Below, one piece after another: positions 28,332 through 63,550 of a DNA stretch of 64,000 nucleotides. The position numbers and the translations under genes were made by a program. Source of the stretch: Octopus sinensis (taxonomy: Eukaryota); contig NC_043025.1 in assembly GCF_006345805.1 (NCBI RefSeq), positions 2,666,001 to 2,730,000 on the forward strand. Reading direction: 5' to 3'. Each line of letters opens with the position of its first letter. Positions within the stretch are counted from its first letter, which is position 1. The notes beneath the pieces are model-generated. The model was not told the DNA's origin. It searched no databases and saw nothing but the letters and a program-made list of their open reading frames with translations.

Positions 28332-29495
28332 TAATAACGGTATTATTGTTGATAGTATTATTAGTTGTATTTACAATAATAATGCTAATAATAATAGGAA
28401 TAGTGTTGTTAGTGGTGGTAAAAATAATAGTAACAACAATCATAGCAATAAAACTTCGTTTCGATCTCGGAGGACAACACGAACGGAATTAAATTTTTGT
28501 CTAATAATTCTAAGATCAGGAATTCTATATACCAGTGTAAAATTTCTCCCGGTAACGATGTCTTCTTCTATATAAGTGCGTCCACTTCCCAGTTATCCAA
28601 GAGAATTTCAAGAGAATATGGAAGAGTTCAGAGTTGCAAATGTTACAAAATCTCCTGCCCTTATCGAAAGGAAAGGATAAAGACATTATGCACCAATTTA
28701 AATTAAAAACTATATTGTTGTCTTTAAGACGCCAAACTAATTTACTTAGCCCTGTAGGATGTCTTCTTCTATATAAGTGCGTCCACTTCCCAGTTATCCA
28801 AGAGAATTTCAAACCATTATTCATCATTTGGGATAGCAGAAAACGCCATACTACAGGGCTAAGTAAATTAGTTTGGCGTCTTAAAGACAACAATATAGTT
28901 TTTAATTTAAATTGGTGCATAATGTCTTTATCCTTTCTTTCGATAAGGGCAGGAGATTTTGTAACATTTGCAACTCTGAACTCTTCCATATTCTCTTCTC
29001 TAAGAATCCCCTTTTAAACACACTTGTAGAGAAATCGTATAACTGTAAACACTGCCAGAAACATACATTTTACTCATATAAATGATTTCGATATTCATTA
29101 TAGTTTGAACAATTAGTTTCACGTGCACTCCACTTCAATAGAGAAATTCTTTCCTAAGCCTATAGGACATTCTTTTAATCAACGTACCCCTCCCTCTCTA
29201 TCTGTTCCCCACTTATTATTCCTTTAACCCTTCTCTTCCTACTATCTACCTTTGACGTCAATTCTAATAACGGTTTTTTTAAAATACTTAATAACGTTTT
29301 GTTTATCATGTAGGCAGTCATCGTAATTGTTATAATGTATTGTTGTTGAAAGAGGCTCTCTTTCTTTCCTGATGAGAAGATTACATCTTACACCGTTTAT
29401 TCCTTTGGAATAAAACCATGTTGTCTTCGAAAATTATGTCGAAAGTAAAAGGAATTTTATTAACAACTTCGTTCAACTCCATTTATTTATTTATT
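27370..29495 (+). mobile_element. Penelope-like element remnant, copy B, with inverted terminal segment and an internal inversion-duplication
   Basis: Same PLE motifs as copy A. The 5' ATAAATGGAGTTGAACGAAG.GTTAACAAAATTCCTTT is the reverse complement of the 3' end (~29448-29490). Its hammerhead (29364-29445) has stem III mutated to ATTATG. Confidence 0.85.
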
Positions 29496-29669
29496 CATAT
29501 ATAACACACAAATTTCTGCACATGAAACCAGAGTTTCTACCTTTGGATAGGTCGCTTCAACCGTATTTCTGACGTGAATTTGCTACCCTGGTATCGGTTC
29601 ATCGAATTTTCCATGTTGACGGTAAACATATGATAATTCATTCACCTATCGAAATATATATATATATAT

Positions 29670-30560
29670 ATTGATTGATTCTAGTTTCAGCACATGAGCT
29701 GTGGCCATGCTAGGGCACCGCCATTTGGTGTTGCTACATGGTTTTACTTCACGAATGCCTTTTAGCAACTGCCATTTGGTGCATGAGAGAACTCGATGCA
29801 GCTGCCCTCATCTGCACCTCCTGCCGTGAAGTTGGTTCATCTGGGATACCTGACAAGAAGAGATCCAGTTTCATTTTAAAGACATCTGCATCCACCCCAT
29901 GCAGGTCTCTTAGATTCTTCGGGAGGATATTGAAGAACTCTGGGCCTCGGAAGCCCAGGCTATCACAGTATCTTGTCCTACATCTTGATGGCAAATTTGG
30001 AGTCCTAGGCACCACGCAGTGGCGCCCAGTTTTGGCATTTGTGTAACTCTCGATGCCAAAGTTTGGGACAAGTCCCTCCAGGATGTTATATATATTATAT
30101 ATATATATATAATATTGGGTCATATCGTGGATAATGCGGTTTTTCCATACATATTTTTGCAAAATTACGAAAAAACAAATTCATTTTTTAAAAATCCAAA
30201 ATATACTCTCCTTCTACATTGTTCTTCTGTCTCTCTGGTAGACTTACAAGGTCCCACTTCCAAAATTCACTTGTCCGTGACAAAAAATACTCTTCATGTA
30301 CAGTTCTGACCTCATCTACAGAATTCATATTTTAACCGTCCAAATGATTTTGAAGACTTCGGAATAAGTGATAATCAGATGGGGCAATGCCTGGCGATTA
30401 TGGTGGGTGGGGCATCGTTTCTCATTCAAACTGCTCCAGCCTTTGGAATGTCATTCTCGCTGTATATGGCCGAGGATTATCCGGATGGAGGAACACTTTT
30501 CGTCTTGAAACCATTTTCTGATAGCGCTGGTGTCGAGGAACCGATGAATGATCAATCAAT
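29670..30560 (-). mobile_element. CR1 3' fragment (~29670-30085) and mariner remnant (~30112-30560), copy B
   Basis: Paralogous to 22060-22950. Confidence 0.85.
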
Positions 30561-30790
30561 ATGACGTAATCTATATGACCCTTGGCTTAAATAGTAGAGC
30601 ACTCGAACCAGATATCGGAGGAGTGGTCGATCCTCAAGACTGGTTGAAGCCAAAATATTTTCTGCTCTTTTAAGGATTTTATCCTTTATATACACAGTGT
30701 GTGTGTGTGTGTATTTATACATGCATATGCATATTTGAACATGCGCTTCAGAGAGAGGATGCACGTACATGTATGCATTTATATGTACGT

Positions 30791-30839
<49 letters not shown>

Positions 30840-30867
30840 GTGTGCGTACATGTCTATGCATATATGT

Positions 30868-30919
<52 letters not shown>

Positions 30920-31774
30920 GCATATATATATATACACACGCACATATGTATATATCAACATACATATCCATATATGAATATATATGTGTATATTTATGCA
31001 TATATGCATATCTTTGCATTATTTATATGTGTGTGCATGCACGTGTGTGTGTGTCTGTGTGTGTGAGTTAGCACGTGTTTGTGTGTGTGTGACGATATCA
31101 CTATATATGAACGTATGCATATAGAAATGGCGAGGGAATACTCGTACAATGAACACCAGATTAATGCTCGTAAAAGTTCAGAACATTTCAAATCCAGTTT
31201 CTTAATAAGGGGCTTTTTCCCCCTGGAACAAGAGCTGGATATAAGAACTGTACACTTCGAAAGTATGGCATTATGTATCATCGATATTATTAATAAGATG
31301 TTTGTATAACCATTAAGAGAAATTTTATTAGCAATGCATAAATATATTCCTAGATCGTTTTGTACGTCTGTGTGACTATTTGACACGAAAATATCGATAC
31401 AGAAAATATCGATACAGAAGATATCTATCAAGCAGTAATCATAAAGAACAAATTAGCAAAAAAACACAATATATGGAAGCTTTTAGATTTGAAGAGACGA
31501 TTGTTTTGTGCAGAAGGAATTGGAAAATTCGGTTTACGTAGTTTAAATGCATGATAAGACGGTGAACTAGCAGAATCGATAGCGGTGCAAGCAAATTGCT
31601 TAGCGACATTTCGTTCGTCTTTCCTTTCTGCGTTCGAATCCCGTCGAGAAATAGGGAACAATGAAAGAATAACGAAAATAACAAAGAATAAACAAAAACA
31701 AAAACTGAGGAAAAACGAAATGAGACCAGAATCAGGGTGTGTGTGTGTGTGTGTACGAATATATATATATATAT

Positions 31775-32003
31775 TTCTTTACTACCCACAAGTGGCTAAA
31801 CACAGGGGAGGGGATACAAGGACAGACAAAAGGATTAAGTCGATTATATCGACCCCATTGCGCAACTGGTACTTATTTAATCGACCCGAAAGAGGAAAGG
31901 CAAAGTCGACTCGGCGGAATTTGAACTCAGAACGTAACAGCAGACGAAATACAACTACGCATTTCACCCGGCGTGCTAACGTTTCTGCCAGCTCGCCGCC
32001 TTT
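31775..32003 (-). mobile_element. Nin-domain-like SINE (paralogue 52557-52775)
   Basis: Reverse complement begins GGCGGCGAGCTGGCAGAAACGTTAGCACGCCGGG...GAGTTCAAATTCCGCCGAG. Confidence 0.8.
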
Positions 32004-33546
32004 TTATAATATATATAATTATATATATATATATAATTATATATATATAATTACATATATATACACAGGGTGCAGCAGTCCTTTTTGCATTTAATAACTT
32101 TTACAGTATACTAGTGTTATTAAGTAATTTTTTTATGGAACATAAATTTACTGCATTAGTTAAAGAAACAAATAATTAACTTATGAAGAAATCGCAAAAC
32201 TTTTGGGAATTTAAGTATTGATCCATCAAAACAATATGATTCAACATAAAAGGCTGTTACTTCAGCCGCACATTGTATATATGTGTGTGTGGGTGTGTGT
32301 GTTTTCACATGCATATCTTTCTATATATGTAGACATGTATTTATGTATAGAATGATCCGATGGACAGATAGAGAGAAAGAGATAGGGAGAGAGAGAGATT
32401 AATAATTCATGTATATTTATGGGTGCATAGAAATGCTAAATCTTAAAAGAAATATTAACAAATTTACCTCTATAATGCCGGCCCCAAATATGACTTTGAT
32501 TTTCACTTTTTACCAAAATTAAATAAAGTTTCGCCACTTATGTGAATATTCTGTTATTCAGATAATTCTACTGTCTTCCTTCGCAGCTTGTATCGGATAA
32601 GTATACTGACTGAACTACCCAGTTGTTTTAACTCTCTAAATGCATTTTTTAAAAACGACACCGTCAATTTTTTGTTTCTGTTGATTCTTGTGACTGGCTA
32701 CACTCGTTTTCTATCCGGAACATAAATCCGTTTTCCAACACTTCACATCTGTTGTCGAAGTGGTTGCAGAGCAACACGATATTAAGTGGTTTGCATAACA
32801 CAACATACCTCCCGTTCCAGGAATTGAAACCGAGATACCGTTATTAGCGACATTTCGTTCGTCTTTCCTTTCTGCGTTCGAATCCCGCCGAGAAAACAAA
32901 AACTGAGAAAAAACAAAATGAGACCAGAATCAGGGTGTGTGTGTGTGTGCGAATATAAAAGCCTTCAATGTTGGTTTCCTTGTCCTGTTTTTATGCTTTA
33001 TGTGTACTGTATTTTTATTTGTATTGCTTTTACGTCCTGTTCTTGTCACTTCTATTCTTTTTTTACCCCTCTGCAAAAGGAATTTTATTTAATTCCTTCT
33101 GCAGGAAGGATTGCTTCGGCGCATCGTGTTCTGCCCTTACCTTCGAGCTGGCAGAAACGTTAGCACGCCGAGCGAAATGCGCCATGTCATGCGCCCTCAA
33201 AAGCAATCAAATTACCAAAACTTTATTTGTCATATGTCCTGGCAACACCCAGAGAATATTCTTATATACTTGACGCCTTTCTAAAATAAACGCCATTGTT
33301 TTTATCGATTACTGGGATGGCGATATCTACTCAAAGACACGACCTCATCTCTCTAGTTACTAAAATGCAAACCCGACGAATTTTTATGGTTTCCTAGAAA
33401 AGATTAAAGAGTCGGTTCTAAATGATGTTTGTTGTTCACTGATTACATGACGATGGTCAGTGGCGTTTCAGTCGTGATCATCCCGTCGATTTACTTATAT
33501 TCCAGTGGGTGATGTGTTCTGTCGTAGTTAAAACGATAGATTGATA

Positions 33547-36027: not shown

Positions 36028-36068
<41 letters not shown>

Positions 36069-36492
36069 ACAATCAAGGAACGGCCATAATAGGCAATTCA
36101 CCCACTAGAAATAACAGCCAAAGCTTCAACCGCAAATACGGTTTACGGAGTTGACTTTTATTTGCGGTTGAAGCTTGGCTGTTATTTCTAGTGGGTGAAT
36201 GGCCTATTATGGCCGTTCCTTGATTGTTGATGTTGAACTTAAAAATGGTCTATGACTATTTAATTTTTTCCCACTAGGCCGCTGGTGGCAAAAAAATTCT
36301 ACAAAATTTTTTTTGCCACCCTATATTGATTATTATGAATTTTCTGGTTAATTCCGTAATGGAATCGACGGCTTATATTTATTTGCTGCCGATAAATTTG
36401 GCGCGAGTGCGATGATTTGAAAATTTTAGGTCAGATATTACCTTGGCAGGGTCAGAAATGCCTCGTGAAAATATCTGTTCCGACTTGTGGCT

Positions 36493-36598
36493 ATTTCTTA
36501 CTGAAGAATCTGAGGGCCTATGGAAGATTGGCTTGATTTAATTTAATCAGTTAGTTTACCATTAAACAGCAGATGAAACGGTGCATCGTATAAGAAAT
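36493..36598 (+). ncRNA. Type I hammerhead ribozyme, unit 1
   Basis: Stem I ATTTCTTA/TAAGAAAT, core CTGAAGA, stem II ATCTG...CAGAT, GAAA, stem III CGGTGCATCG, GUA triplet ending at 36590. Confidence 0.87.
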
Positions 36599-36981
36599 TA
36601 CAGGGTAAATGTTTTTTAATTTTCTCCTGTTTACGGAGTTGACTTTTATTTGCGGTTGAAGCTTTGGCTGTTATTTCTAGTGGGTGAATGGCCTATTATG
36701 GCCGTTCCTTGATTGTTGATGTTGAACTTAAAAATGGTCTATGACTATTTAATTTTTTCCCACTAGGCCGCTGGTGGCAAAAAAATTCTACAAAATTTTT
36801 TTTGCCACCCTATATTGATTAATTATGAATTTTCTGGTTAATTCCGTAATGGAATCGACGGCTTATATTTATTTGCTGCCGATAAATTTGGCGCGAGTGC
36901 GATGATTTGAAAATTTTAGGTCAGATATTACCTTGGCAGGGTCAGAATGCCTCGTGAAAATATCTGTTCCGACTTGTGGCT

Positions 36982-37091
36982 ATTTCTTACTGAAGAATCT
37001 GAGGGCCTATGGAAGATTGGCTGATTTAATTTAATTTAATCAGGTTAGTTTACCATTAAACAGCAGATGAAACGGTGCATCGTATAAGAAT
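36982..37091 (+). ncRNA. Type I hammerhead ribozyme, unit 2
   Basis: Same core and stems as unit 1. GUA ends at 37084. Confidence 0.85.
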
Positions 37092-37472
37092 TACAGGGTA
37101 AATGTTTTTTAAATTTTCTCCTGTTTACGGAGTTGACTTTTATTTGCGGTTGAAGCTTTGGCTGTTATTCTAGTGGGTGAATGCCTATTATGGCCGTTCC
37201 TTGATTGTTGATGTTGAAATTAAAAATGGTCTATGACTATTTAAATTTTTCCCACTAGGCCGCTGGTGCAAAAAATTCTACAAAATTTTTTTTGCCACCC
37301 TATATTGATTAATTATGAATTTTCTGGTTAATTCCGTAATGGAATCGACGGCTTATATTTATTTGCTGCCGATAAATTTGGCGCGAGTGCGATGATTTGA
37401 AAATTTTAGGTCAGATATTACCTTGGCAGGGTCAGAAATGCCTCGTGAAAATATCTGTTCCGACTTGTGGCT

Positions 37473-37579
37473 ATTTCTTACTGAAGAATCTGAGGGCCTA
37501 TGGAAGATTGGCTTGATTTAATTTAATCAGGTTAGTTTACCATTAAACAGCAGATGAAACGGTGCATCGTATAAGAAAT
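37473..37579 (+). ncRNA. Type I hammerhead ribozyme, unit 3
   Basis: Same core and stems as unit 1. GUA ends at 37571. Confidence 0.87.
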
Positions 37580-37803
37580 TACAGGGTAAATGTTTTTTAA
37601 ATTTTCTCCTGTTTACGGAGTTGACTTTTATTTGCGGTTGAAGCTTTGGCTGTTATTTCTAGTGGGTGAATGGCCTATTATGGCCGTTCCTTGATTGTTG
37701 ATGTTGAACTTAAAATGGTCTATGATTATTTAATTTTTTCCCACTAGGCCGCTGGTGGCAAAAAAATTCTACAAAATTTTTTTTTCCACCCTATATTGAT
37801 TAA

Positions 37804-37842
<39 letters not shown>

Positions 37843-37844
<2 letters not shown>

Positions 37845-44323: not shown

Positions 44324-47300
44324 TATATATATAAAACTGAATTGCGTTTTTACCGCTTGGATCGCTTTCAATGCCACTACATCCCGTCCGATTCGCTCCA
44401 AAATTTACAGGGACATGTAGAATGAGGTGACGATGCGCGTGGGCTACCTTAGAAATCCCTATATTAAAAGCTGTGTTTTCTAGGGACCATCTTCCTACCT
44501 CACCCTATTTCCTCCAGTACTCTGTCACTCCTCTTCATTTATAACTTTCAGAAGTCCACTACGGTTATTTAAAGTATCTGTCACTATCGCTATTTCCTTT
44601 CTTTTTCACTGACTCTGTTTCCTACCTTCCTATCACTTCGGCGGCGTTCTTTTAAGTATATGTCTGTCACCAACAATCAACACACGATCATGAGAACAAA
44701 TATTTTGAATCAGATATTCTTGCGTTCATTTATATGTGTGTGTGTGTGTGTGTTCTTTATATATAAATATGTATATATAATGTATGTGTGTGTGTGTGTG
44801 TTCTATATATAAATATGTATATATAATGTATGTGTGTGTGTGTGTTCTATATATAAATATGTATATATAATGTATGTGTGTGTGTGTGTGTTCTATATAT
44901 AAATATGTATATATAATGTATGTGTGTGTGTTCTATATATAAATATGTATATATAATGTATATATACAAAGTGAATATATCTGTATTTATGTATATTAAA
45001 CTTTTTCATACTTTTTCATAGTTATATATATTTTAAAACAAATTATAAATATAATTTAATAATTTTTATTTTCAATTTAAATAATTTAAAGTTTTCAATT
45101 TTATATTTTACTAGCAGTATCGCCCGGCGTTGCTCGGATTTGTAAGGGAAATAACTATATAAGCATTTTTAGTGAGTTATAGCAAAAAAAATAGCAAAAA
45201 ATGCTTTAAAAATGGAATAAAAAATGATAGTAATTTTTTGTTAATCGTTGATTCATCGTAGACATTTTTAGAGAGTTACTTCCCTTATATAATAGCGAAA
45301 ATGCATTAAAATGGAATAAAAAATGATGGTAATTTTTTTTTTATCGTTGACTCATCGTAGACATTTTTAGAGAGTTACTTCCCTTATATAATAGCGAAAA
45401 ATGCATTAAAATGGAATAAAAAATGATGGTAATTTTTTTTTTAAATCGTAGACTCATCGTAGACGCGCGCTAATACATAGAAGGGCTCGATATTAATCAC
45501 GACTATAAGATTCCCGGTTTTGGTTACACTGCAACGCAAAATGTGGGAGTAGTTAGGAATCTAAATCGTAGGAGACAGACACACAACCTTACTTTTATAT
45601 ATAAAGATTTGTGCAACAACTAAAACTTTCGGTTGTGCAATTTGTTTGCACAGGAAACCTGCCCTGTGTGGCGGTTTTTGCCGTTTTTGTGGATCTGTTT
45701 CAGCTTTTTTAGCGATTTCTGTTTTGGCCCCTTCAAGCCATCAAGTCGTTGTCCTAAAAGAACGCTGGTCTCCTTCACAACGCATTACGACGTTGATTTC
45801 CTTACACTCCCTTCCCCACAGCTTCACGAGGGAGGGAAGAAGGGGGAGAAGCAAACAGGTGCAGGCGTGAGTGTGGTCGCCAACTCCGCCGCCATCGACA
45901 CACGAAAAAATATGCATTAAAATGGAATAAAAAATTATGTTAAATTATTTTTAAAATCGTTGACTCATCGTAGACGCGCGCTAATACGCAGACGGGCTCG
46001 ATATGAATCACGACTATAAGATACCCGAATTTGGTTAAACTGCACCGCAAAATGTGGGAGTAGTTAGGAATCTAAATCGAAGGGGACATACACTCACACA
46101 ACTACAGTTTTATATATATAGATATATTTTCTATGTTATATTTTCTTTTTTGTTTTAGGTTTTTCACTGTTTGATTTGCCTTTTAGTGGTTTTATATCTA
46201 ATTTAATTTATACAGATATATATCTCATTTGTATATATAATGCGTGCATACACACACACACACATATATACACTTGCGTCAGAAATTAATTAGCACTTCT
46301 CAAATTTCTACATTAAATAGGTTAAATCAATTAACCTATGAGCTGTTCAAAACGTCTTACGCGATGAGAAAACTTAGTATGGTGTGATTTCGGTCCTTGC
46401 GAGGCGCTACCTATATCTATTAAACAAAGGAACATTTGTCTGCATCCGCACTCCAAGTTGTTGCACTGCTATGTCAACATCATAAGGCTGTAGACTCTCA
46501 AACTGCTCTGCAAACAAAGTTACGTCATCGTTCTGCGCAACAGTGAACTCGCAACAAAGCAATAGTTCGAGATATGGCCACTAGGTGACAGCACATACCT
46601 TGAGTGAAGAGCAAATCAAGGGTGCTAATTAATTTCTGACAGCTAGTGTATATATATACACATATATATATAATGTGTGCATTACGTAGTCGGTCGATTC
46701 AGCTGAAAACATGCACACCTATGTTAAAAGTGCTGACAAGTTTGCATGACAACTATTTTTTTCCTCAAATGAAAGGCGTCACCTCTAGGACAAAATTCCT
46801 CATCTTATAAAATGTGGCCCCAGTAGACCCGAATGAAATCGGGTTATATTAACTAAAATGTGAAAAGGGGTCTAAATGGGGCTGGAAGGGGATAAAATTT
46901 CAAGGAGCGGGTGTTTAGGAATTCTCTGTTACATCAAGCTAAAAAATTTGAGCCAGTCTTTTAATCGTCAATGTGTTGCCGTCCATGATAAAGAAGTTTT
47001 GAATGCTTGCCATGGTGAGTCTACTGTCGTGAGAAAGAATCACTTCAAAACTTGGTGTTTACGAATTTTCTTTCACATCAAGTTCAAAATTTTACGCCAG
47101 CCGTTAAACTGTCACTACGTTGCTGCCCGCCAGCCATGGTGACTCTACTATCCTCAGATTCTATCCCTTCAAACTTTGGTTTCCAATATTTTATTATTTT
47201 CATTCAGCTCGCAAGTTCGTCTGTCCCTTTTAAATGTTAGCGTTTTGCTGTCTGCCTTGAAGCAGACCTTTCCATTGCCACTGCCTCATATTTCTGATTG

Positions 47301-47850
47301 ATCTTTCTAAATATTTTATTTCTCAACAAACTCAAGATCTTCTGTTGTTTTTAAATGGGAGAGAGATAGATAAAGATGGCGAGTAAGAGAAAGCGGGGGA
47401 GAGTCCGAGAGAAAAGAAAAGTAAGTGAGTGGGAAAGTGAGAGAGAACGGAGAGAGAAACAAATACGGAGAATCATCATCATCATCATCGTTTAACGTCC
47501 GTTTTCCGTGCTAGCACGGGTTGGGCAGTGTGACCGGGGTCTCGGAAGCCAGGAGGCTGCACCAGGCTCCAGTCTGATCTGGCAGTGTTTCTACAGGTGG
47601 ATGACCTTCCTAACGCCAACCACTCAGTGAGTGTAGTGAGTGCTCTTTTCGTGCCGCCGGCCCTGGTGCTAGGGGGGCTCGCAGTGGCAACGATCGGTTG
47701 GTGCTTTTTACGTGCACACCGGCACAGAAGCAAGTCAAGGCCTTGCTGCAATCGCCACGTTCGGATGGTGCTTTTTACGTGCTGAAAGGAAGCAACAGAA
47801 AGTAACACCCACACTCTTACCCGCGCGTAGAGCGGGTCACCTTCAGCTAG
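44324..47850 (+). mobile_element. Non-autonomous Helitron, tandem unit 2
   Basis: Head-to-tail copy of 40771-44323 with the same 3' hairpin and CTAG|T. Carries the nested minus-strand Helitron at 45111-46122. Confidence 0.75.
46271..46648. mobile_element. Tc1/mariner-type MITE, 378 bp
   Basis: TIRs CACTTGCGTCAGAAATTAATTAGCAC / GTGCTAATTAATTTCTGACAGCTAGTG with TA on both sides. Absent from Helitron unit 1 (~43095-43130). Confidence 0.85.
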
Positions 47851-48139
47851 TATATATATATTTCTATATAACAGGAAGGTTTACCAAAATAAACAAGAGA
47901 CGAAGGCAGGTTTACGAAAATGAACAAGAGACGAAGGCGGGTGGAATACAAACACAATTATTAGAATGGCGCTCAGGAGTAGAAATAAAACAAGTCTTTT
48001 ACGTTTCCACCCTACGCTCTACGACAGAAAGATACACAAAAAAGAAACAAATGGAGAAACAAGGAGAGAAAAAAATGCGTGCAGGAGCTAACGATTCAAC
48101 ATGGCGTTCTGATTTCAGCCAGGGGTCAGACATCAAACG

Positions 48140-48218
<79 letters not shown>

Positions 48219-48366
48219 CAATGAAGGGTGAAATTAATTAATTTGAATAATATCAATTACACCCAGTAGTCTTCGGCATGTAAAAGCCTCATTCGAGAAA
48301 ATTTAAGTAATACTAAGCAATTCGGTGTGCGGTAAGGCAATTCGTTGCTAAGCCCTTAATTGCTTA

Positions 48367-48417
<51 letters not shown>

Positions 48418-48425
48418 ATATATAT

Positions 48426-48460
<35 letters not shown>

Positions 48461-48481
48461 ATTTTATATATATATATATAT

Positions 48482-48518
<37 letters not shown>

Positions 48519-48520
48519 CA

Positions 48521-48563
<43 letters not shown>

Positions 48564-48564
48564 T

Positions 48565-49241
48565 ATAAATAAATGGAGTTGAACGAAGATGTTAACAAAA
48601 TTCCTTTACTCTCCCCTTGTTAAAAGCTGGCTATAAAGAGAAAGTGTCATTCATCGATTCTGTGCATCCTAGACCTACATCTGCTTCTCCAGATAAAATA
48701 GATATTTTTAATAGGAAGAGTGATTTTAATTCTAATAGTGTAAGCAGCCCAATACGTAATATAAATTCTTTACGGACCAGGGGAGGTAAGCGCCATTTAA
48801 CCCCAAATTTCCAAACCAGAAATTTTACCCCTACCTTTACAAGTAACTCTACGTACAATTCAAAAGTCACTAAGAACTGTATCTGGTCCGTAATCCCTTT
48901 CGGAAAACAAATTACATCGAACCTTCCCTTGCAGTTCCGTGAAGCTGTTTCTAGGAACTTTCCCAAAAATTCTAGATATTATTCTATTATCAATTCCCAC
49001 ATAGTTAGAATCGCTTTCTCTAACACTAGAATCTTTCACAAATTATATCTTCTCACAATACCAATCTGCAAAATAAAGGTTCTTCACCCGAGAGTTCCAG
49101 TAGCCGTCTTGCTAATTCTAACGCCCCATACAATTATAATAATAAGAATAGTATTGATAATAATAGTAATGGTAATAGTGATGGTGATAACAATGATAAC
49201 AATAATAATAGTAATAGTCGTGTTAATAACAATGGTAATGT

Positions 49242-49291
<50 letters not shown>

Positions 49292-50275
49292 TAATAATAA
49301 TAATAATGATAATAACGGTATTATTGTTGATAGTATTATTAGTTGTATTAACAATAATAATGCTAATAATAATAGGAATAGTGTTGTTAGTGGTGGTAAC
49401 AATAATAGTAACAACAATCATAGCAATAAAACATCGTTTCGATCTCGGAGGACAACACGAACGGAATTAAATTTTTGTCTAATAATTCTAAGATCAGGAA
49501 TTCTATATACCAGTGTAAAATTTCTTCCGGTACCGATGTCTTCTTCTATATAAGTGCGTCCACTTCCCAGTTATCCAAGAGAATTTCAAACCATTATTCA
49601 TCATTTAGGGATAGCAGAAAACGCCATACTACAGGGCTAAGTAAATTAGTTTGGCGTCTTAAAGACAACAATATAGTTTTTAATTTAAATTGGTGCATAA
49701 TGTCTTTATCCTTTCCTTTCGATAAGGGCAGGAGATTTTGTAACATTTGCAACTCTGAACTCTTCCATATTCTCTTCTCTAAGAATCCCCTTTTAAACAC
49801 ACTTGTAGAGAAATCGTATAACTGTAAACACTGCCAGAAACATACATTTTACTCATATAAATGATTTCGATATTCATTATAGTTTGAATAAATAGTTTCA
49901 CGTGCACTCCACTTCAATAGAGAAATTCTTTCCTAAGCCTTTGAACATTCTTTTAATCAACGTACCCCTCCCTCTCTATCTGTTCCCCACTTATTATTCC
50001 TTTAACCCTTCTCTTCCTACTATCTACCTTTGACGTCAATTCTAATAACGGTTTTTTAAAATACTTAATAACGTTTTGTTTATCATGTAGGCAGTCATCG
50101 TAATTGTTATAATGTCTTGTTGTTGAGAGAGTCTCTCTTTCTTTCCTGATAAGAAGATTACATCTTACACCGTTTATTCCTTTGGAATGAAACCATGTTG
50201 TCTTCGAAACATATGTCGAAAGTAAAAGGAATTTTATTAACATCTTCGTTCAACTCCATTTATTTATTTATTCAT
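48565..50275 (+). mobile_element. Penelope-like element remnant, copy C
   Basis: ORFs 48617..49294 (thumb region) and 49475..49864 (SIYQCKI..FYISASTS.LSKRISNHYSSF GIY-YIG). Inverted terminal segment present. Its hammerhead (50141-50222) has the core mutated to CTGATAA. Confidence 0.87.
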
Positions 50276-50446
50276 ATATAACACACAAATTTCTGCACAT
50301 GAAACCAGAGTTTCTACCTTTGGATAGGTCGCTTCAACCGTATTTCTTACGTGAATTTGCTACCCTGGTATCGGTTCATCGAATTTTCCATGTTGACGGT
50401 AAACATAGGATAATTCATTCACCTATCAAAATATATATATATATAT

Positions 50447-51335
50447 ATTGATTGATTCTAGTTTCAGCTCATGAGCTGTGGCCATGCTAGGGCAACGCCA
50501 TTTGGTGTTGCTACATGGTTTTACTTCACGAATGCTTTTTAGCAACTGCCATTTGGTGCATGAGAGAGTTCGATGCAGCTGCCCTCATCTGCACCTCCTG
50601 CCGTGAAGTTGGTTCATCTGGGATACCTGACAAGAAGAGATCCAGTTTCATTTTAAAGACATCTGCATCCACCCCATGCAGGTCTCTTAGATTCTTCGGG
50701 AGGATATTGAAGAGCTGTGGGCCTCGGAAGCCCAGGCTATCACAGTATCTTGTCCTACATCTTGATGGCAAATTTGGAGTCCTAGGCACCACGCAGTGGC
50801 GCCCAGGTTTGGCATTTGTGTAACTCTCGATGCCAAAGTTTGGGACAAGTCCCTCCAGGATATTATATATATTATATATATATATAATATTGGGCCATAT
50901 CGTGGATAATGCGGTTTTTCCATACTTATTTTTGCAAAATTACGAAAAAACAAATTCATTTTTTAAAAATCCAAAATATACTCTCCTTCTACATTGTTCT
51001 TCTGTCTCTCTGGTAGACTTACAAGGTCCCACTTCCAAAATTCACTTGTCCGTGACAAAAAATACTCTTCATGTACTGTTCTGACCTCATCTACAGAATT
51101 TATATTTTAACCGTCCAAATGATTTGAAGACTTCGGAATAAGTGATAATCAGATGGGGCAATGCCTGGCGATTATGGTGGGTGGGGCATCGTTTCTCATT
51201 CAAACTGCTCCAGCCTTTGGAATGTCACTCTCGCTGTATATGGCCGAGGATTATCCGGATGGAGGAACACTTTTCGTCTTGAAACCATTTTCTGATAGCG
51301 CTGGTGTCGATGAACCGTTGAATGATCAATCAATA
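50447..51335 (-). mobile_element. CR1 3' fragment (~50447-50865) and mariner remnant (~50888-51335), copy C
   Basis: Paralogous to 22060-22950. Confidence 0.85.
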
Positions 51336-51558
51336 TGACGTAATCTATATGACCCTTGGCTTAAATGGTAGAGCACTCGAACCAGATATCGGAGGAGTGG
51401 TCGATCCTCATGGCTGGTTGAAACCAAAATATTTTCTGCTCTTAAAAGGATTTTATCCTTTATATACACAGTGTGTGTGTATTTATACATGCATATGCAT
51501 ATTTGAACATGCGCTTCAGAGAGAGGATGCACGTACATGTATGCATTTATATGTACAT

Positions 51559-51595
<37 letters not shown>

Positions 51596-51636
51596 TTGTG
51601 TATATGTGTGTGTGCGTACATGTCTATGCATATATG

Positions 51637-51675
<39 letters not shown>

Positions 51676-54600
51676 GCATATATATATATACACACACACA
51701 TATGTATATATCAACATACATATCCATATATGAATATATATGTGTATATTTATGCATATATGCATATCTTTGCATTATTTATATGTGTGTGCATGCACGT
51801 GCGTGTGTGTCTGTGTGTGTGAGTTAGCATGTGTTTGTGTGTGTGTGACGATATCACTATTTATGAACGTATGCATGTAGAAATGGCGAGGGAATCCTCG
51901 TTCAATGAACACCAGATTAATGCTCGTAAAAGTTCAGAACATTTCAAATCCAGTTCTTCTTAATAAGGACTTTTTCCCCCTGGAACAAGAGCTGGATATA
52001 AGAACTGTACACTTCGAAAGTATGGCATTATGTATCATCGATATTATTAATAAGATGGTTGTATAACCATTAAGAGAAATTTCATTAGCAATGCATAAAT
52101 ATATTCCTAGATCGTTTTGTACGTCTGTGTGAACAAATCCAGTGACTATTTGACACGAAAATATCGATACAGAAAATATCGATACAGAAGATATCTATCA
52201 AGCAGTAATCATAAAGAACAAATTAGCAAAAAAACACAATATATCGAAGCTTTTAGATTTGAAGAGACGATTGTTTTGTGCAGAAGGAATTGGAAAATTC
52301 GGTTTATGTAGTTTAAATGCAAGATAAGACGGTGAACTAGCAGAATCGATAGCGGTGCAAGCAAATTGCTTAGCGACATTTCGTTCGTCTTTCCTTTCTG
52401 CGTTCGAATCCCGTCGAGAAATAGGAAACAATGAAAGAATAACGAAAATAACAAAGAATAAACAAAAACTGAGGAAAAACGAAATGAGACCAGAATCAGG
52501 GTGTGTGTGTGTGTGTGTGTGTGTGTGCGAATATATATATATATATATATATATGTTTCTTTACTACCCACAAGTGGCTAAACACAGGGGGGGGCAGACA
52601 AACGGATTAAGTCGATTATATCGACCCCAGTGCGTAGCTGGTACTTATTTAATCGACCCGAAAGGATGAAAGGCAAAGTCGATCTCGGCGGAATTTGAAC
52701 TCAGAACGTAACAGCAGACGAAATACGACTATGCATTTCGCCCGGCGTACTAACGTTTCTGCCAGCTCGCCGCCTTTTTATAATATATATAATTATATAT
52801 ATATATATAATTATATATATATAATTACATATATATACACAGGGTGCAGCAGTCCTTTTTGCATTTAATAACTTTTACAGTATACAAGTGTTTATTAAGT
52901 AATTTTTTTATTGGACATAAATTTACTGCATTAGTTAAAGAAACAAATAATTAAGTTATGAAGAAATCGCTAAACTTTTGGGAAATTAAGTATTAACCCA
53001 TCAAAACAATATGATTCAACATAAAAGGGTGTTACTTCAGCCGCACACTGTATATATGTGTGTGTGGGTGTGTGTGTTTTCACATGCATATCTTTCTATA
53101 TATGTAGACATGTGTTTATGTATAGAAAGATTCGATGGACAGATAGAGAGAAAGAGATAGGGAGAGAGAGAGATTAATAATTCATGTATATTTATGTGTG
53201 CATAGAAATGCTAAATGTTAAAAGAAATATTAACAAATTTACCTCTATAATGCCGGCCCCAAATATGACTTTGATTTTCACTTTTTACCAAAATTAAATA
53301 AAGTTTCGCCACTTATGTGAATATTCTGTTATTCAGATAATTCTACTGTCTTCCTTCGCAGCTTGTATCGGATAAGTATACTGACTGAACTACCCAGTTG
53401 TTTTAACTCTCTAAATGCATTTTTTTAAAACGACACCGTCAATTTTTTGTTTCTGTTGATTCTTGTGACTGGCTGCACTCGTTTTCTATCCGGAACATAA
53501 ATCCGTTTTCCAACACTTCACATCTGTTGTCGAAGTGGTTGCAGAGCAACACGATATTAAGTGGTTTGCATAACACAACATACCTCCCGTTCCAGGAATT
53601 GAAACCGAGATACCATTATTAGCGACATTTCGTTCGTCTTTCCTTTCTGCGTTCGAATCCCGCCGAGAAAACAAAAACTGAGAAAAAACGAAATGAGACC
53701 AGAATCAGGGTGTGTGTGTGTGTGCGAATATAAAAGCCCTCAATGTTGGTTTCCTTGTCCTGTTTTTATGCTTTATGTGTACTGTATTTTTATTTGTATT
53801 GCTTTTACGTCCTGTTCTTGTCACTTCTTTTCTTTTTTTACCCCTCTGCAAAAGGAATTTTATTTAATTCCTTCCGCAGGAAGAACTGCTTCGGCGGATC
53901 GTGTTCTGCCCTTACCTTCGAGCTGGCAGAAACGTTAGCATGCCGGGCGAAATGCGCGATGTCATGCGCCCTCAAAAGCAATCAAATTACCAAAACTTTA
54001 TTTGTCATATGTCCTGGCAACACGCAGAATATTCTTATCTACTTGACGCCTTTCTAAAATAAACGCCATTGTTTTTATCGATTATTGGGATGGCGATATC
54101 TGCTCAAAGACACGACCTCATCTCTCTAGTTACTAAAATGCAAACCCGACGAATTTTTATGGTTTCCTAGAAAAGATTAAAGAGTCGGTTCTAAATGATG
54201 TTTGTTGTTCACTGATTACATGACGATGGTCAGAGGCGTTTCAGTCGTGATCATCCCGTCGATTTACTTCTATTCCTTTGGTTGATGTGTTCTGTCCGTC
54301 GTTAAAACCATAGAATGTGAAACAGTGGAAGTTGGCTATTATTCCTTAACGTTGTTTCAAATGCTTACGATAGGGTTGATAGCGCAAATGATCGATTGAT
54401 GGACATTCATTAGTCCTGAAACCCTCATCTGCAAAAATTATTGGAATTTACCACATGGAGTGGATGTTAATTTTCATAGATCTCTCCGAAATCTCGCCGT
54501 TTTATATAAGTCCTGCCTTACTATCAAGACGAACCATTCACTTGTTAAATGGCATCTGTGACTAAATCATGTTTGGAATAGTGAAATGTTCATGTGCATG

Positions 54601-55334: not shown

Positions 55335-55937
55335 GTAGTTTCATTTTTATAGCGTGCTTTCACCTCACTACCGAGCGCAGCTCTGTGTGCCTTGGGTATG
55401 TGCCTTGATTTGTTGTGATGCTCTGATGGTTATTGTATGGAAAGTGTTCTGCGTAGGATGTGTGCAGTGCCTAGTAGTGCAATTTTCTGTATGTTTTATG
55501 TGTTTGTAAGTCCTGGTGTTTTTGTTATGTATTTGTCTGAATATTTTTTTATCATGCCTAATGCACCTACTATAATAGGAATTGTTTCTGTTTTCAGGTT
55601 CCCCATTCTAGTTACCTCTATTTCCAGGTCTTTGTATTTTGAGAGTTTCTCCATTTCTTTTAGAGACACGTTGTCATCTGCCGGTATTGATACATCAATT
55701 AGAAAGCATTTTTTTTCTTCATGATCTCTGACAACTATATCTGGTCTGTTGGCCTTAATTTCTCTATCTGTGTGTATCGGCATATCCCAGAGTATGGTTG
55801 CTTTCTCGTTTTCTGTGACCTTTTCTGGTGTGTGCCTATACCATCTTTTTTCTGTTGTTATTCCATAGTGTTGGCATAGCTTCCAATGTATGTAGGTTCC
55901 AACTCTGTCATGTCTGTGAATATATTCCTTCTTAGCC

Positions 55938-55938
<1 letters not shown>
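55333..55938 (-). mobile_element. 5'-truncated R4/Dong-like copy (RLE domain plus 3' UTR), family of 2317-3315
   Basis: RHDRV...RPDIVVRD...LIDVSIP...KLSKYKDL...PIIVGALG. (TAA)n on both sides. Confidence 0.9.
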
Positions 55939-56011
<73 letters not shown>

Positions 56012-56610
56012 GAGTAGTTTTATTTTTATAGCGTGCTTGCACTTCACTACCGAGCGCAGTTCTGTGTGCCTTAGGCATGTGCTGGGATTTGTTGTGATGC
56101 TCTGATGGTTATTGTATGGAAAGTATTCTGCGTAGGATGTGTGCAGTACTTAGTAGTGCAATTTTCTGTATGTTATATGTGTTTGTAAGTCCTGGTGTTT
56201 TTGTTATGTATTTGTCTGAATATATTTTTTATCATGCCTAATGCGCCTACTATGATATGAATTGTTTCTGTTTTTAGATTCCACATTCTGGTTACCTCTA
56301 TTTCCAGGTCTTTGTATTTTAAAAGTTTCTCCATTTCTTTTAGAGACACGTTGTCATCTGCCGGTATTGATACATCAATTAGAAAGCATTTTTTTCTTCA
56401 TGATCTCTGACAACTATATCTGGTCTGTTGGCCTTAATTTCTCTATCTGTGTGTATCGGCATATCCCAGAGTATGGTTGCTTTCTCGTTTTCTGTGACCT
56501 TTTCTGGTGTGTGCCTATACCATCTTTTTTCTGTTGTTATTCCATAATGTTGGCATAGCTTCCAATGTATGTAGGTTCCAACTCTGTCATGTCTGTGAAT
56601 ATATTCCTTC
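56012..56610 (-). mobile_element. Second tandem 5'-truncated R4/Dong-like copy, same family
   Basis: Closely similar to 55333-55938. (TAA)n tail; (GAA)n then (TAA)n at the 5' junction. Confidence 0.9.
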
Positions 56611-56650
56611 TTCTTCTTCTCTTCTTCTTCTTCTTCTTCTTCTTCTTCTT

Positions 56651-56681
<31 letters not shown>

Positions 56682-56693
56682 TTATTATTATTA

Positions 56694-56726
<33 letters not shown>

Positions 56727-56727
<1 letters not shown>

Positions 56728-56910
56728 TATGTTTGACTTTTGCTTTATGTCTGTACAAGTTGGCTCCAAGTCTCACCCAGGGACCACAAGAGACAACAGG
56801 TTGGAAGTTCTCTGCCATATATTTGGGGTTTTTTTGTGTTGTACTAGTCAATGTCTAATACATAAAAATAAAATTTAAAAAAATAAATAAATAAAATAAA
56901 ATAAAATACA

Positions 56911-56945
<35 letters not shown>

Positions 56946-59052
56946 AAAGTTTGTTTTAAACCTTGGGATTACATAGAGAGTATTTTGCGTAGGATATGAG
57001 CAGTTCCCATGAGCACTATCTTTTGAATTTCTGCCATTTTGGGGTTTCCTGGTATCTGAGTTAGGTAGCAATCAGTCCCTTTCGCTATCATTCCCAGGGC
57101 ACCTATGACAACAGGTATTGTTTTAGTCTTCAGCTTCCACATTTTGCTGATTTCTATTTCAAGATCTTTATATTTGCTCAGTTTTTGGTAGGTCTTGACA
57201 GATACGTTTATATCGATTGGGACAGTCATATCAATGAGGAGGCATGTTCTTTGTCTGAAGTCTTTCAATATGATGTCTGGTCTATTTGCATCTGTCTTCC
57301 TGTCAGTTTGGATGGTGAAGTTCCAGAGGAGTGAGATGTGGTCATTTTCAAGCACTGGAGGTGGATTGTGTTCCCACCAGTTTTTATTATGGGGCAAATC
57401 CAAGTTTTTGCAAATTACCCAGTGAATATATTGTGCAGCTCTATCATGCCTGTTGAGGTACTCTGTAGTCGCAAGAAGACTGCATTTGGAGACAACATGA
57501 TCAATGGTTTCATTTTGTTGTCGGCATACACGACACGTTGGGCTACTGCCGTTCTTTAATATGTTGGCCTGGTAGTTTCTTGTTGGTAGGCATTGATCTT
57601 GAGCTGCTATGATAAACCCTTCTGTTTCAGATTTTAAGCCAGAGGCCATTAGCCATTGATGGGTCAGGGCTTTGTCAATATCTGCATTATTCGCTCTCTT
57701 TGGGTATTTGCCATAGAGAGGTTTTTCTTGCCATTTATTATTCAGAATATCTAAGGCCGCAGTTTTGGCACGGGTTTTCATGCGCTTAGCTTTTTCTGTG
57801 CTTGTTTCTTGTATGTTTATCTCTAATTCCGAAATTGGTTGTATTCGGAATTCACTTAGATATTCCTTTGCCTATTTTGTGACTGAGTTTGATGCTTTCT
57901 TGTTTTCATGTTTTGAGACAAGTTTTAACATCCAGTCCTCAGAGTTTTTCAGGTAGGTGTCTAGGCCAATTGTAGCAATCTTCATTGTTATTGCAAGGTG
58001 TAAAAGACCACGGCCTCCCTCTTTTCTTGGCAGATAGAGTCGTTCTGTATCTGCCTTAGGGTGGTGCATTCTATGCAGTGTCAACAGTTTCCTTATTTTT
58101 CTGTCGAGCTGACATATTTCAGTAATTGACCAGTTAACAATATTGAAACTGTAAGTCACGACTGGTATGGCTAAAGCATTGATCGCTTCGATCCTGTTTC
58201 TTGCATTCAGCTCTGTCTTGAGTATTGCTCTCACTCTTCGATAGCATTCTCTCCTGGTCCTTTCCTTCATCTCTGAATGCCTTATTCCGTTCCCTTCAAT
58301 TACCCCTAGGTACTTGTAGCTCTCCGCTGGGTCTAGTTCTTTATGACATTCTGCTGGTCAAGGTTAACGTTAGATGTTTCTGTCAGTTTTCCTTTGATAA
58401 AGGTAGCTTTTGCACATTTATCGAGGCCGAATTGCATTCTGATGTCGTCACTGAATTGTTTGACTATCGCTACTAAGCCCTTGAGTTGTTGGTCATTTTT
58501 TGCAACAAGCTTTAAATCATCCATGTAAATGAGATGATTTATATTTTTATCAAACATTTTATACCCATATTGCGCATCATTGAGCAGCTTTGAGAGAGGT
58601 ATTAAGGATAAACAAAAGAGGAGTGGTGACAGTGAGTCACCCTGGAAAATGCCACACGAAATTTTTACATCACCAGCATTTAGGGATTCATTGTCACTGT
58701 TCAGAGTTAGTGTGGTTCTCCATGATCTCATACTTACAGTCAAGAAGTTTCGCAGAGTAGGTGCTATTTTATACATTTCCAGGCATTTCCTAATCCAGCT
58801 ATGTGGTAGGCTATCAAAAGCCTTTTTATAGTCTATCCAGGCTATTGATAAGTTTTTGTGTCGTTTGTGACAATCTTCTAAGATCATCTTATTGATGAGT
58901 AGTTGGTCTTTACAGCCGTAGGATCCACGTTTACATCCTTTCTGTTCATTAGGGAATATGCTGTTGTCTGTTAAAAAACTATAGGTATATACCGTCAGGA
59001 CAGATGTTAGCGTTACTATAGGTATATTCCGTCAGGACAAATGTTAGCGTTT
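56727..59052 (-). mobile_element. 5'-truncated R4/Dong-like element (RT, CCHC, RLE, 3' UTR), family of 1-2216
   Basis: ORFs 58333..58887 (AWIDYKKAFDS, GIFQGDSLSP, YMDDLK), 57872..58270 and 56969..57781 (CRVCRQQNETIDHVVSKC, RHD, RPDIILKD). Few disablements. (TAA)n on both sides. Confidence 0.93.
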
Positions 59053-61803: not shown

Positions 61804-63290
61804 TTCTAGTTTCAGCTCAGAGCTGCGGCCATGCTGATGGATCGCCGTTTTGTGCTACACTGTTCTTACGAAGAACCTCGTCTAATATGTGGCACTTGGT
61901 GAAGAATGGAGTTCGATATAGCTACTCTCATTTGCACCTCTTGCCGTGAGGTAGGTTCATCTGGGACTCTTGACAGGAAGATGTCCAGCTTTGATTTAAA
62001 AACCGCTACATCTACTTTGTGCAAGTTCCTCAGACTCTTTGTGAGAATATTAAAAAGTTGTGAGCCCTTGAATCCCAGGCTTTTGCAGAAGCTGGTCCTG
62101 AAGCGTGATGGCACTATGCAGTGTCGTCCCGCTCTAGTATTGGTGTAGCTTACAATGCCAAAATTTGGCACAATTCCTTCCAGGATCTTCCAAACATATA
62201 TTGCTGCATACCTCTCCCGTTTTCTCTCCAGGGAGTAGAGTCTTAGCTGTTTCAACCTTTCCCAGTAGCTGAGCTGTTGCAAAGAGACGATCCTCTTTGT
62301 GAATCTTCTCTGGATTGCTTCAAGGTCCGCTGTTAATTTCACACTGGTGGGTGACCATAGCTGTGAGCAGTAATCCATGCGGCTGAGGACGAATGTCCGC
62401 CAGAGGACCAACATCGTTTCCTTATCTCTGGTTCTGAATGTTCTTAGGATCCATCCATCCAGTCGTCTGCACTTTGTCGCAATCCTGGTAATGTGCACTT
62501 GGAAAGAGGTATCATCACTCATGTCGATACCCAGATCCCTCACAGACTTAGGCTCTGGGATTGAAATTCCCTGTGGACCGGTGTATCCTGTAAGTTTAAT
62601 ATTCAGTTTTGGATGCTGATAGCGCAGGGCCTGGAATTTTTCAGCATTAAGCTGCATATAATTATCTTCAGCCCATCTGTAGATTGAGTCCAATTCCTGC
62701 TGCAGGTGTGCAACATCGCTGGGGTTCTGTATTTTCTGCGAGAATTTCGTATCGTCTGCATAGCTTGCCAGAGTGGCTATCCGGGCATATCTGAGAGGGC
62801 CATTATAAAAAGCAGTGGTCCCAAGACAGTGCCCTGTGGAACACCGCTCACTATTTGTGTGTTCATAGAGGTGGCTCCATTAACCACTACTGCCTGACTC
62901 CTATCTTTCAGGAAGTCATGTAACCACACTCCAAGTTTTCCAGCTATGCCTAGGTCACGCAGTTTGTGGCATATCATACCATGATCCACCTTGTCAAAAG
63001 CTTTTGAAAAATCAAGGTAGATTACGTCCACATTTGATTTGTTGAGTAATTGTCTCAACACCCAGTCATAATGTTGTAAGAGCTGGGTCAGGCAGCTCCT
63101 ACCTGGTCGAAAACCATGCTGGGTATCACTCAGCAAGTTATTTTCCTCAAGGAATGCGATTAGTTTCTTTCTGACTATCCGTTCCAGGAATTTGCTGATG
63201 TGTGAAGTCAGAGAGATAGGCCTATAGCTTTTGTCATCTGCTCTACTTCCCCCTTTATGTATTGGGCATATTATTTCTTCCTTCAGCTTG
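61804..63290 (-). mobile_element. CR1-clade LINE, 5'-truncated (RT plus C-terminus)
   Basis: YRPISLTS, QHGFRPGRSCLTQLL, YLDFSKAFDKVDH, SGVPQGTVLGPLLF, YADDTK, DYCSQLWSP and LEAIQRRFTK motifs. Frameshift near 62770. Confidence 0.92.
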
Positions 63291-63550
63291 TTATATATAT
63301 ATAACGGAAGTTAATTAGTCCGATGGGGATTTCCAAAGTTAAAACGCTGACGAAAATGCGAACTTTGGTAATTAACGATTAACGGTTTCGTGCCTAGATT
63401 TATATTTGTTTTTGTTTTGGTTTTTGTGAATTCTCCCTATATAGATATTAGTTATTAATATTTGAGAGAATAAAATCCAAAAGATGGTGTAATTTAAATG
63501 TTCATTTTGAATTGGTAAAAGGTGTTTTTTTTAAAATCATACATATATAT

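Follow-up and report, generated by a model that had tools for sequence, protein, structure and literature searches.

Small retroelements with hammerhead ribozymes have been described in animals as non-LTR retrozymes (Cervera and de la Pena 2020, PMC7229834). According to the available text, they are tandem, multi-copy, non-coding and of low GC content (<50%), their units have 150-450 bp with one type I hammerhead, the monomer is predicted to be self-paired, and Penelope-like elements (PLEs) have been proposed as their mobilisers. PLEs of the Hydra clade (Craig et al. 2021, PMC8557442), in the accessible parts of that study, carry a type I motif with a short palindromic helix III 3' of the ORF, insert at (TA)n and have an endonuclease with CxxC and CxH; loop 2 has 3-10 nt in all 26 rows of the published Hydra table, with 8 nt in Hydra-1 of Octopus bimaculoides. 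The minimal PLE hammerheads (Cervera and de la Pena 2014, PMC4209133, available in part) are type I motifs in PLE repeats that depend on dimers, being described as active in multimers and quiet as monomers, and their helix II, of 7-8 bp, was already noted as larger than usual.

Long insertions in natural hammerheads have precedents. The PLE-X1 hammerheads of spike mosses have a long loop 2 (S. moellendorffii, 35 nt; S. tamariscina, 29 nt) and were flagged 'deviates from canonical structure' in the accessible part of PMC8557442 File S2. The discontinuous Clec2 hammerhead of mammals (PMC6155905, PMC6765202, both available in part) still cleaves with an insertion of 150-1500 nt in one helix.

The DNA analyzed here, called the window, is a 64-kb stretch from Octopus sinensis and consists of repeat-rich animal DNA. 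It includes broken reverse-transcriptase frames of non-LTR retrotransposons (526-1998, 55496-59031 and 61866-63310, all on the - strand) and a compound (ATT)n array of 3.3 kb at 4325-7670; no tRNA was found in the 64 kb.

Judging from its sequence, a tandem array in the window is a retrozyme-like, apparently undescribed element; its hammerhead is well supported and has a stable helix II of unusual length. A PLE in the same window provides a second, weaker case.

Hammerhead motifs of the array and of the PLE

A type I descriptor that allowed up to 150 nt between the core halves gave exactly four matches on both strands of the 64 kb, and a re-scored version of the descriptor gave the identical four (21753-21834, 36493-36598, 36984-37090 and 37473-37579, all on the + strand). 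The motifs and the degenerate duplicates of one of them are:

36493..36598, + strand, hammerhead A1; helix II at 36508-36574, predicted cut after 36590 (GUA)
36984..37090, + strand, hammerhead A2, whose distal hairpin and helix I contain indels; predicted cut after 37084
37473..37579, + strand, hammerhead A3, the best copy; helix I of 8 bp, predicted cut after 37571
37559..37570, + strand, helix III segment of A3, self-complementary; 12 bp between two adjacent copies
21753..21834, + strand, hammerhead P1, borne by a Hydra-like PLE in its 3' non-coding region; helix II at 21765-21817, predicted cut after 21829 (GUC)
29364..29445, + strand, duplicate of P1 that differs at two positions of helix III (C15.2 lost)
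50141..50222, + strand, duplicate of P1 with a core change, G8 to A

The core (CUGANGA, GAAA and UH around a three-way junction, with helix I open) is complete in all four matches, and a match of comparable quality and spacing occurred in only 1 of 100 block shuffles of the window (mean 0.01). By their sequence, the array and PLE motifs belong to type I, have all of the core and carry a helix III that is palindromic and of the dimer type, and the proposal of an earlier note on this DNA that both are hammerheads is borne out by the core and the three helices. Helix III encloses 6 or 10 nt, so that the motifs are not 'minimal' hammerheads. They share with these the type I topology, a dependence on dimers that is here predicted, and the location in PLE repeats, but both are outside the descriptor given in the available text of PMC4209133, which admits no helix III nucleotides and a loop 2 of 3-10 nt.

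The array is an insertion of the following layout:

36028..36066, unstranded, (TA)n at the left insertion end
36065..36138, - strand, inverted partial unit at the 5' end, matching positions 19-91 (97% by blastn over 74 nt)
36141..37803, + strand, tandem array of 3.4 copies of a 490-bp non-coding unit with one hammerhead per full unit, retrozyme-like
37804..37843, unstranded, (TA)n at the right insertion end

TRF reported a period of 490 with 97% matches; the unit has a GC content of 36%, and its predicted self-paired monomer has a z-score of -4.17. A tblastn comparison of the unit with 165 PLE proteins gave no match, open frames of at least 150 aa overlapping the array are absent, and no LTR arrangement was seen in its layout. 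The array thus resembles the metazoan retrozymes in being tandem, multi-copy, low in GC, non-coding and self-paired, with one type I hammerhead per unit; mussel retrozyme motifs also lack the usual loop 1-loop 2 nucleotides, as does the array (PMC7229834, accessible text). It is filed as retrozyme-like because its unit exceeds the range of 150-450 bp. It further differs from the retrozymes described there in having no terminal loop 2 near the core, in the length of its helix II region, and in that its (TA)n target and inverted 5' piece point directly to a PLE: in the available part of bioRxiv 2021.04.23.441226, PLE insertions are described with the same layout, including the inverted 5' piece.

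The unit belongs to a high-copy family, since 7,428, 1,481, 2 and 33 contigs match it in four public runs, contig depth not being a copy number. Altogether, the unit sequence is present, in part, in 20 public runs from 13 studies with 7 organism labels, one of which is possibly the window's own source, and none of these 20 runs is listed as RNA. A 521-letter contig of run X12, which may be RNA, comes back to its own beginning after a single unit; it was rejected as evidence of a circle, as tandem DNA would give the same picture. Two stretches of the unit away from the hammerhead are free of listed variants, 37349-37419 (71 nt) and 37641-37692 (52 nt); hairpins are predicted in both, and they are candidate promoter or reverse-transcriptase recognition sites. 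A 14-mer of the unit has 11 near-matches in all, against 0.6 expected, seven of them outside the array (17182, 26762, 39071, 40054, 40266, 44470 and 61724); it is perhaps common to another repeat family.

The second element is a PLE:

19907..22045, + strand, 5'-truncated, frameshifted Hydra-like PLE with RT thumb, Asn-rich linker, endonuclease (21148-21474) and a 3' region ending in (TA)n

Its P1 hammerhead is located about 280 nt past the stop codon. An alignment with 39 homologues characterizes the C-terminal endonuclease as GIY-YIG-type with CxxC and CxH and without CCHH, the GIY-YIG motif itself being degenerate in the window copy. The (TA)n insertion, the type I hammerhead in the 3' region with its short palindromic helix III, and the endonuclease are traits shared with the Hydra clade of PMC8557442, as far as its accessible parts describe it; the helix II spacing and a linker without CxCX5C are differences. 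The CxCX5C linker is replaced by a cysteine-free Asn-rich stretch in the window PLE and in the proteins P0001 and P0005, and the element is therefore termed Hydra-like. The best named relatives of the endonuclease are Octopus sinensis proteins (P0001 with 76% identity over query residues 1-86). The window copies end at the RT thumb, and the full-length homologues P0066 and P0104 have RWR/RWK and DKT. No homologue of the thumb fragment was found among longer proteins, Pfam named no family for the window PLE fragments or for five homologues, and PLE protein scans of viral contigs gave no relative. The linker is encoded by (AAT)n-rich, Asn-coding sequence at 49130-49430, and also at 20426-20907 and 27997-28337, likewise in Octopus sinensis P0001 and P0005; the shared stretch suggests an octopus sub-lineage of PLEs.

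A block comprising the Hydra-like PLE and 2-3 kb of flank is present three times with ~95-97% identity (19907-24128, 26917-32725 and ~46650-53500), the middle copy with a local inversion near 28610-28770. Because the downstream flank of 2-3 kb is shared, the three PLE copies represent one insertion that was segmentally duplicated. Two of the three hammerhead copies are damaged, C15.2 being lost in one and G8 changed in the other. In context, the proximal helix IIa of the PLE motif has a predicted probability of 0.07-0.43, with a competing hairpin at 0.16-0.51. Activity of the PLE hammerhead is less certain than that of the array. The earlier note had called the two elements unrelated, which agrees with the comparisons: homology was rejected between the array unit and the PLE 3' region (98 and 177 of 300 shuffles scored as high) and between the two inserts (395 of 1000). 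A remote common origin of the array and the PLE 3' region is possible.

Architecture of helix II and its detection

The segment 36508-36574 of A1 has 67 nt, with ATCTG and CAGAT around 57 nt and sub-hairpin arms at 36529 and 36545-36553. This is the geometry that the earlier note had described, but its view of a loop with one hairpin gives way to a longer structure: in the folding models, the enclosed segment is an extended, bulged continuation of helix II. In the array, a stem of 5 bp leads through a 7x7 internal loop to 4 bp, which an A.A mismatch separates from 14 bp capped by a 6-nt loop; in the PLE motif, 6 bp and 4 bp are separated by a U.U mismatch, and beyond an internal loop follow 8 bp capped by a 3-nt loop. 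The 5-bp stem around 43 nt and the hairpin at 21785-21803 that the earlier note had named in the PLE motif are both present. The best copy of the array is divided as follows:

37488..37555, + strand, helix II of A3 with its extension; IIa (37488-92/37551-55) is followed by the 7x7 internal loop, then by IIb (37500-03/37540-43) and IIc (37505-18/37525-38)

Compared with 500 dinucleotide shuffles, helix II has z-scores of -3.55 in A1, -2.51 in A2, -4.92 in A3 and -3.53 in the PLE motif. The fold of the array extension is strand-specific (-24.4 kcal/mol on the + strand versus -10.4 on the - strand) and depends on the + strand on G.U pairs, which make up 5 of the 14 bp of IIc in A3; the PLE extension is without such asymmetry (-11.8 versus -12.5). 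In the alignment of the copies, A1 is without one G that is present in A2 and A3. The missing G is probably an assembly error or a rare variant, because no indel of at least 4% is among those listed inside the extension in four public runs.

The comparison with relatives was based on 97 loci encoding Hydra-type proteins, namely the best 80 of 497 from metagenomes and 17 genome contigs. The descriptor found 92 hammerheads, 73 of them distinct, in 69 of these loci, and the distance between A9 and G12 is 10-25 nt in all 73 distinct motifs, in line with the earlier statement that minimal PLE hammerheads usually have a short stem II loop. The spacing of 67-72 nt in the array copies, and of 53 nt in the PLE motif, makes the window hammerheads clear outliers, since the related motifs have 10-25 nt and the published Hydra loops 3-10 nt; the arm is two to three times as long as in the relatives. 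The 28 remaining loci include two training loci of a covariance model built on 46 short-helix relatives; in the other 26, this model gave 19 matches at E <0.03, and the longest of these did not exceed 58 nt. It should be noted that the 17 loci L084-L100, animal-type Hydra PLEs, most of them with hammerheads, are located in five bacterial genome assemblies; they are probably host DNA mis-binned into these assemblies.

Among described systems, the spike-moss PLE-X1 motifs (PMC8557442, available parts) resemble those of the window in being PLE-borne with a long loop 2; the spacing in S. moellendorffii is ~54 nt, compared with 53 nt, and an inner 6-bp hairpin is visible by eye in its loop. They differ in belonging to an endonuclease-less plant element in 28S rDNA and in being shorter than the 67-72 nt of the array. 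The Clec2 ribozyme is likewise natural, with a long insertion in one helix, and it cleaves; in the accessible portions of PMC6155905 and PMC6765202 it is a type III motif in an mRNA 3' UTR whose insertion is located in helix I. The Naiad 'HHR_half_core' entries of Craig et al. comprise, in the available part, eight Naiads with halves 35-50 nt apart (PMC8557442). As a cephalopod precedent, this was rejected for the Octopus Naiad consensus, in which, by eye, the GAAA block precedes the CUGAUGA block. In Naiad_Ovul with the preceding consensus (accessible part of PMC8557442 File S5), the order is cleavage-site block, GAAA block, CUGAUGA block, with helices I and III pairable by eye. This half core resembles the non-circular type-SGC permutation as the available text of PMC10085705 presents it, and no helix II partner is evident after CUGAUGA.

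The earlier note had suspected that size-limited searches miss such motifs, which is supported. The RNAmotif descriptor of 2014 had a loop 2 limit of 10 nt (PMC4209133, accessible text). The short-helix covariance model with default filters found the PLE motif at 21.8 bits and none of the three array copies; with the filters off, it found two of the three weakly, at ~16 bits, and the window motifs were its top matches. Rfam behaves differently. It reported no hammerhead among the 150 of 161 matches listed for the window, and none in 301-nt stretches around each motif with E up to 10; at the gathering score, it was also silent on all 13 of the short-helix loci that were compared. The Rfam blank is not due to the long helix, because the short-helix loci are equally blank. 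Pattern scans of viral contigs gave 0 and 3 matches, and both matches that were examined were without helix I or III. In the literature searched, mostly outside subscription papers, no octopus retrozyme and no animal hammerhead with a helix II region of >40 nt was found.

Natural variation and the possible role of the extension

Natural variants were surveyed in contigs of four runs (three studies) compared with 37305-37790 at 80% likeness, differences being listed from 4%. The window's own copies are uninformative for covariation, as the array copies differ mainly by homopolymer indels and the PLE copies are segmental duplicates. In 486 nt of the unit, 39 substitutions are listed, 12 of them inside the A3 hammerhead: none in the core, two in unpaired positions (N7 and the internal loop), nine that preserve pairing alone or with a listed partner, and one that breaks a pair. 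The last, at 37555 (24% of the depth of run X2), affects pair 10.1-11.1, which is T/T in 28 of the 73 related motifs.

Changes on both sides were found at four pre-defined pairs, none of them in the conserved core: 37480/37572 in helix I, 37491/37552 and 37492/37551 in the proximal helix IIa, and the centre of the helix III palindrome. A third linked change in helix III converts G.U to G-C, and the three linked variants preserve the palindrome, at equal depth in five contigs of run X6 and one of run X16. When 12 changes were placed at random, four both-side pairs occurred with a frequency of 1.5e-5 and at most one damaging change with a frequency of 0.019. Both values overstate the case, and the former should not be read as counting independent events: phase is established for the helix III changes alone, the other three pairs having been matched between separate contigs, and several of the changes may trace to a single subfamily.

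The covariation in stem II that the earlier note had proposed as a check is found at two pairs of IIa of the array and nowhere in IIb and IIc. The latter have no listed variant and the distal extension of 58 nt is near-invariant, with one listed variant compared with 4.7 expected (P 0.044), a modest depletion. Covariation cannot support helices that do not vary, so that folding is the sole support for the distal extension. IIb and IIc have predicted pair probabilities of 0.71-1.00 in all three contexts that were folded, whereas IIa has 0.85-0.94 in the circular unit and in the whole array and 0.00 in a 307-nt (+-100-nt) fragment. Among the listed joints in public contigs, none removes the extension alone, and no short-helix form is among them; the single deletion in the region (37523 to 37572, one contig) removes the core as well. 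A copy with 18 differences (X2 record 15) is gap-free across 37478-37598.

A role of the extension as a scaffold ranks first, and the main rival is that the ribozyme is functional and the extension a neutral passenger, an insertion in the founder copy that was spread by a recent burst. The family is young (5,898 of the 7,428 contigs of X2 have a likeness of 95% or more), the unit contains two further stretches (71 and 52 nt) that are equally free of listed variants, the depletion of variants is modest, and the extensions of the two elements differ in layout and sequence, all of which fits a passenger. Nevertheless, this explanation is unlikely in view of the strand-specific, G.U-rich fold with the z-score of A3 given above, and of the gap-free copy with 18 differences and the lack of a short-helix form among the listed joints.

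It is slightly less probable that the internal loop of helix II takes the place of canonical loop 2, docking on the strand 5' of helix I through a pseudoknot of 4 bp and thereby accelerating cleavage at low magnesium. The internal loop begins at 5 bp from the core, roughly the position of loop 2 in canonical motifs. The candidate contact is:

37469..37498, + strand, candidate 4-bp contact of 37469-72 (5' of helix I) with 37495-98 (helix II internal loop), a lead only

The only listed variant of the extension, at 37498, is phased with a matching change at 37469 in one contig (X16 record 4), and, according to the available text of PMC3088659, each of the three hammerhead types has examples of a pseudoknot that links stem I with stem II. 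However, with a single contig, such a match has a chance of 0.095 near helix I and 0.39 anywhere upstream, and two other compensated pairs that are equally good exist among the same 12 phased variants. In addition, indels are frequent at 37464-68 on the strand concerned, and no comparable contact stands out in the PLE motif.

The extension might also be a protein-binding or regulatory domain that gates cleavage, recognized by the PLE reverse transcriptase or by a host dsRNA-binding protein, a natural counterpart of engineered stem II switches. Its near-invariant sequence with internal loops and the predicted context dependence of helix IIa would suit such a domain, and an Anolis PLE hammerhead reportedly cleaved only with its protein (PMC11167929, available part). 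That motif, however, is protein-assisted with no long helix II reported in the accessible text, and the two extensions of the window have no motif in common (score of 13 compared with a shuffle mean of 12.3), which leaves a binding domain improbable. That the array is satellite DNA with a dead or accidental look-alike of a hammerhead is the least credible explanation: predicted alternative folds do sequester the core and Rfam finds nothing, but the pattern of natural variants, the palindrome kept by linked changes, the chance of 0.01 and the top rank in an independent model all speak against it.

Proposed mechanism and implications

The array is probably a non-coding, retrozyme-like retroelement that uses the enzymes of a (TA)n-targeting PLE, with the extension as a scaffold. 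In read-through transcripts, two adjacent hammerheads would form a double hammerhead via the palindromic helix III, cleavage after GUA would release 490-nt monomers, and these may circularise and template target-primed reverse transcription. In the natural A2+A3 precursor, the double hammerhead with its helix III of 12 bp is predicted only 1.2 kcal/mol above the free minimum, compared with 12.0 for two monomer folds. Helix I of the array has a probability of 0.05-0.46 where it is formed, and in the isolated monomer a fold that pairs core nucleotides with helix III is favoured by 1.5 kcal/mol. The modelled folding of the array agrees with a ribozyme active in multimers but silent in its monomeric form.

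The long helix II would most likely be a self-folding RNA hairpin that extends the helix away from the core and holds the weak, A/U-rich proximal stem of 5 bp together, as a scaffold outside the catalytic mechanism. The PLE motif would be a ribozyme of this kind too, its extension having a shape of its own and a lower stability. A long stem II alone is chemically unsurprising, because engineered hammerheads tolerate domains inserted there (PMC2777235, accessible part).

A much bolder view is that octopods possess a hidden hammerhead class in which helix II has a functional domain of 40-60 nt, gained at least twice or once in a shared ancestor, that docks on helix I or binds the PLE protein and thereby controls the timing of the cut, while thousands of copies and an abundant 490-nt circular RNA have escaped the published searches. 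A long helix II is found in both hammerhead families of the window, compared with none of the 73 distinct motifs from related loci. Still, the view is doubtful, and the term 'lineage-specific' used in the earlier note goes further than the comparison allows, with two families in one window, a loop of 8 nt in Hydra-1 of Octopus bimaculoides and one of 35 nt in a spike-moss PLE.

If the extension is only a tolerated hairpin, the case is of moderate interest, as a long helix II fits the fold and a plant precedent exists; if it serves for contact or binding, the stem II switches hitherto known as engineered constructs would have a natural version. Any ribozyme census that limits loop 2 undercounts such motifs, which may explain some of the PLEs reported without hammerheads. 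If the array is active, it would represent a large, apparently undescribed octopus family of retrozyme-like elements, with the longest helix II found for an animal retroelement hammerhead in the literature searched. Through its (TA)n target and the inverted piece at its 5' end, the array is linked to the PLE machinery, and it thus bears on the question of what mobilises animal retrozymes.
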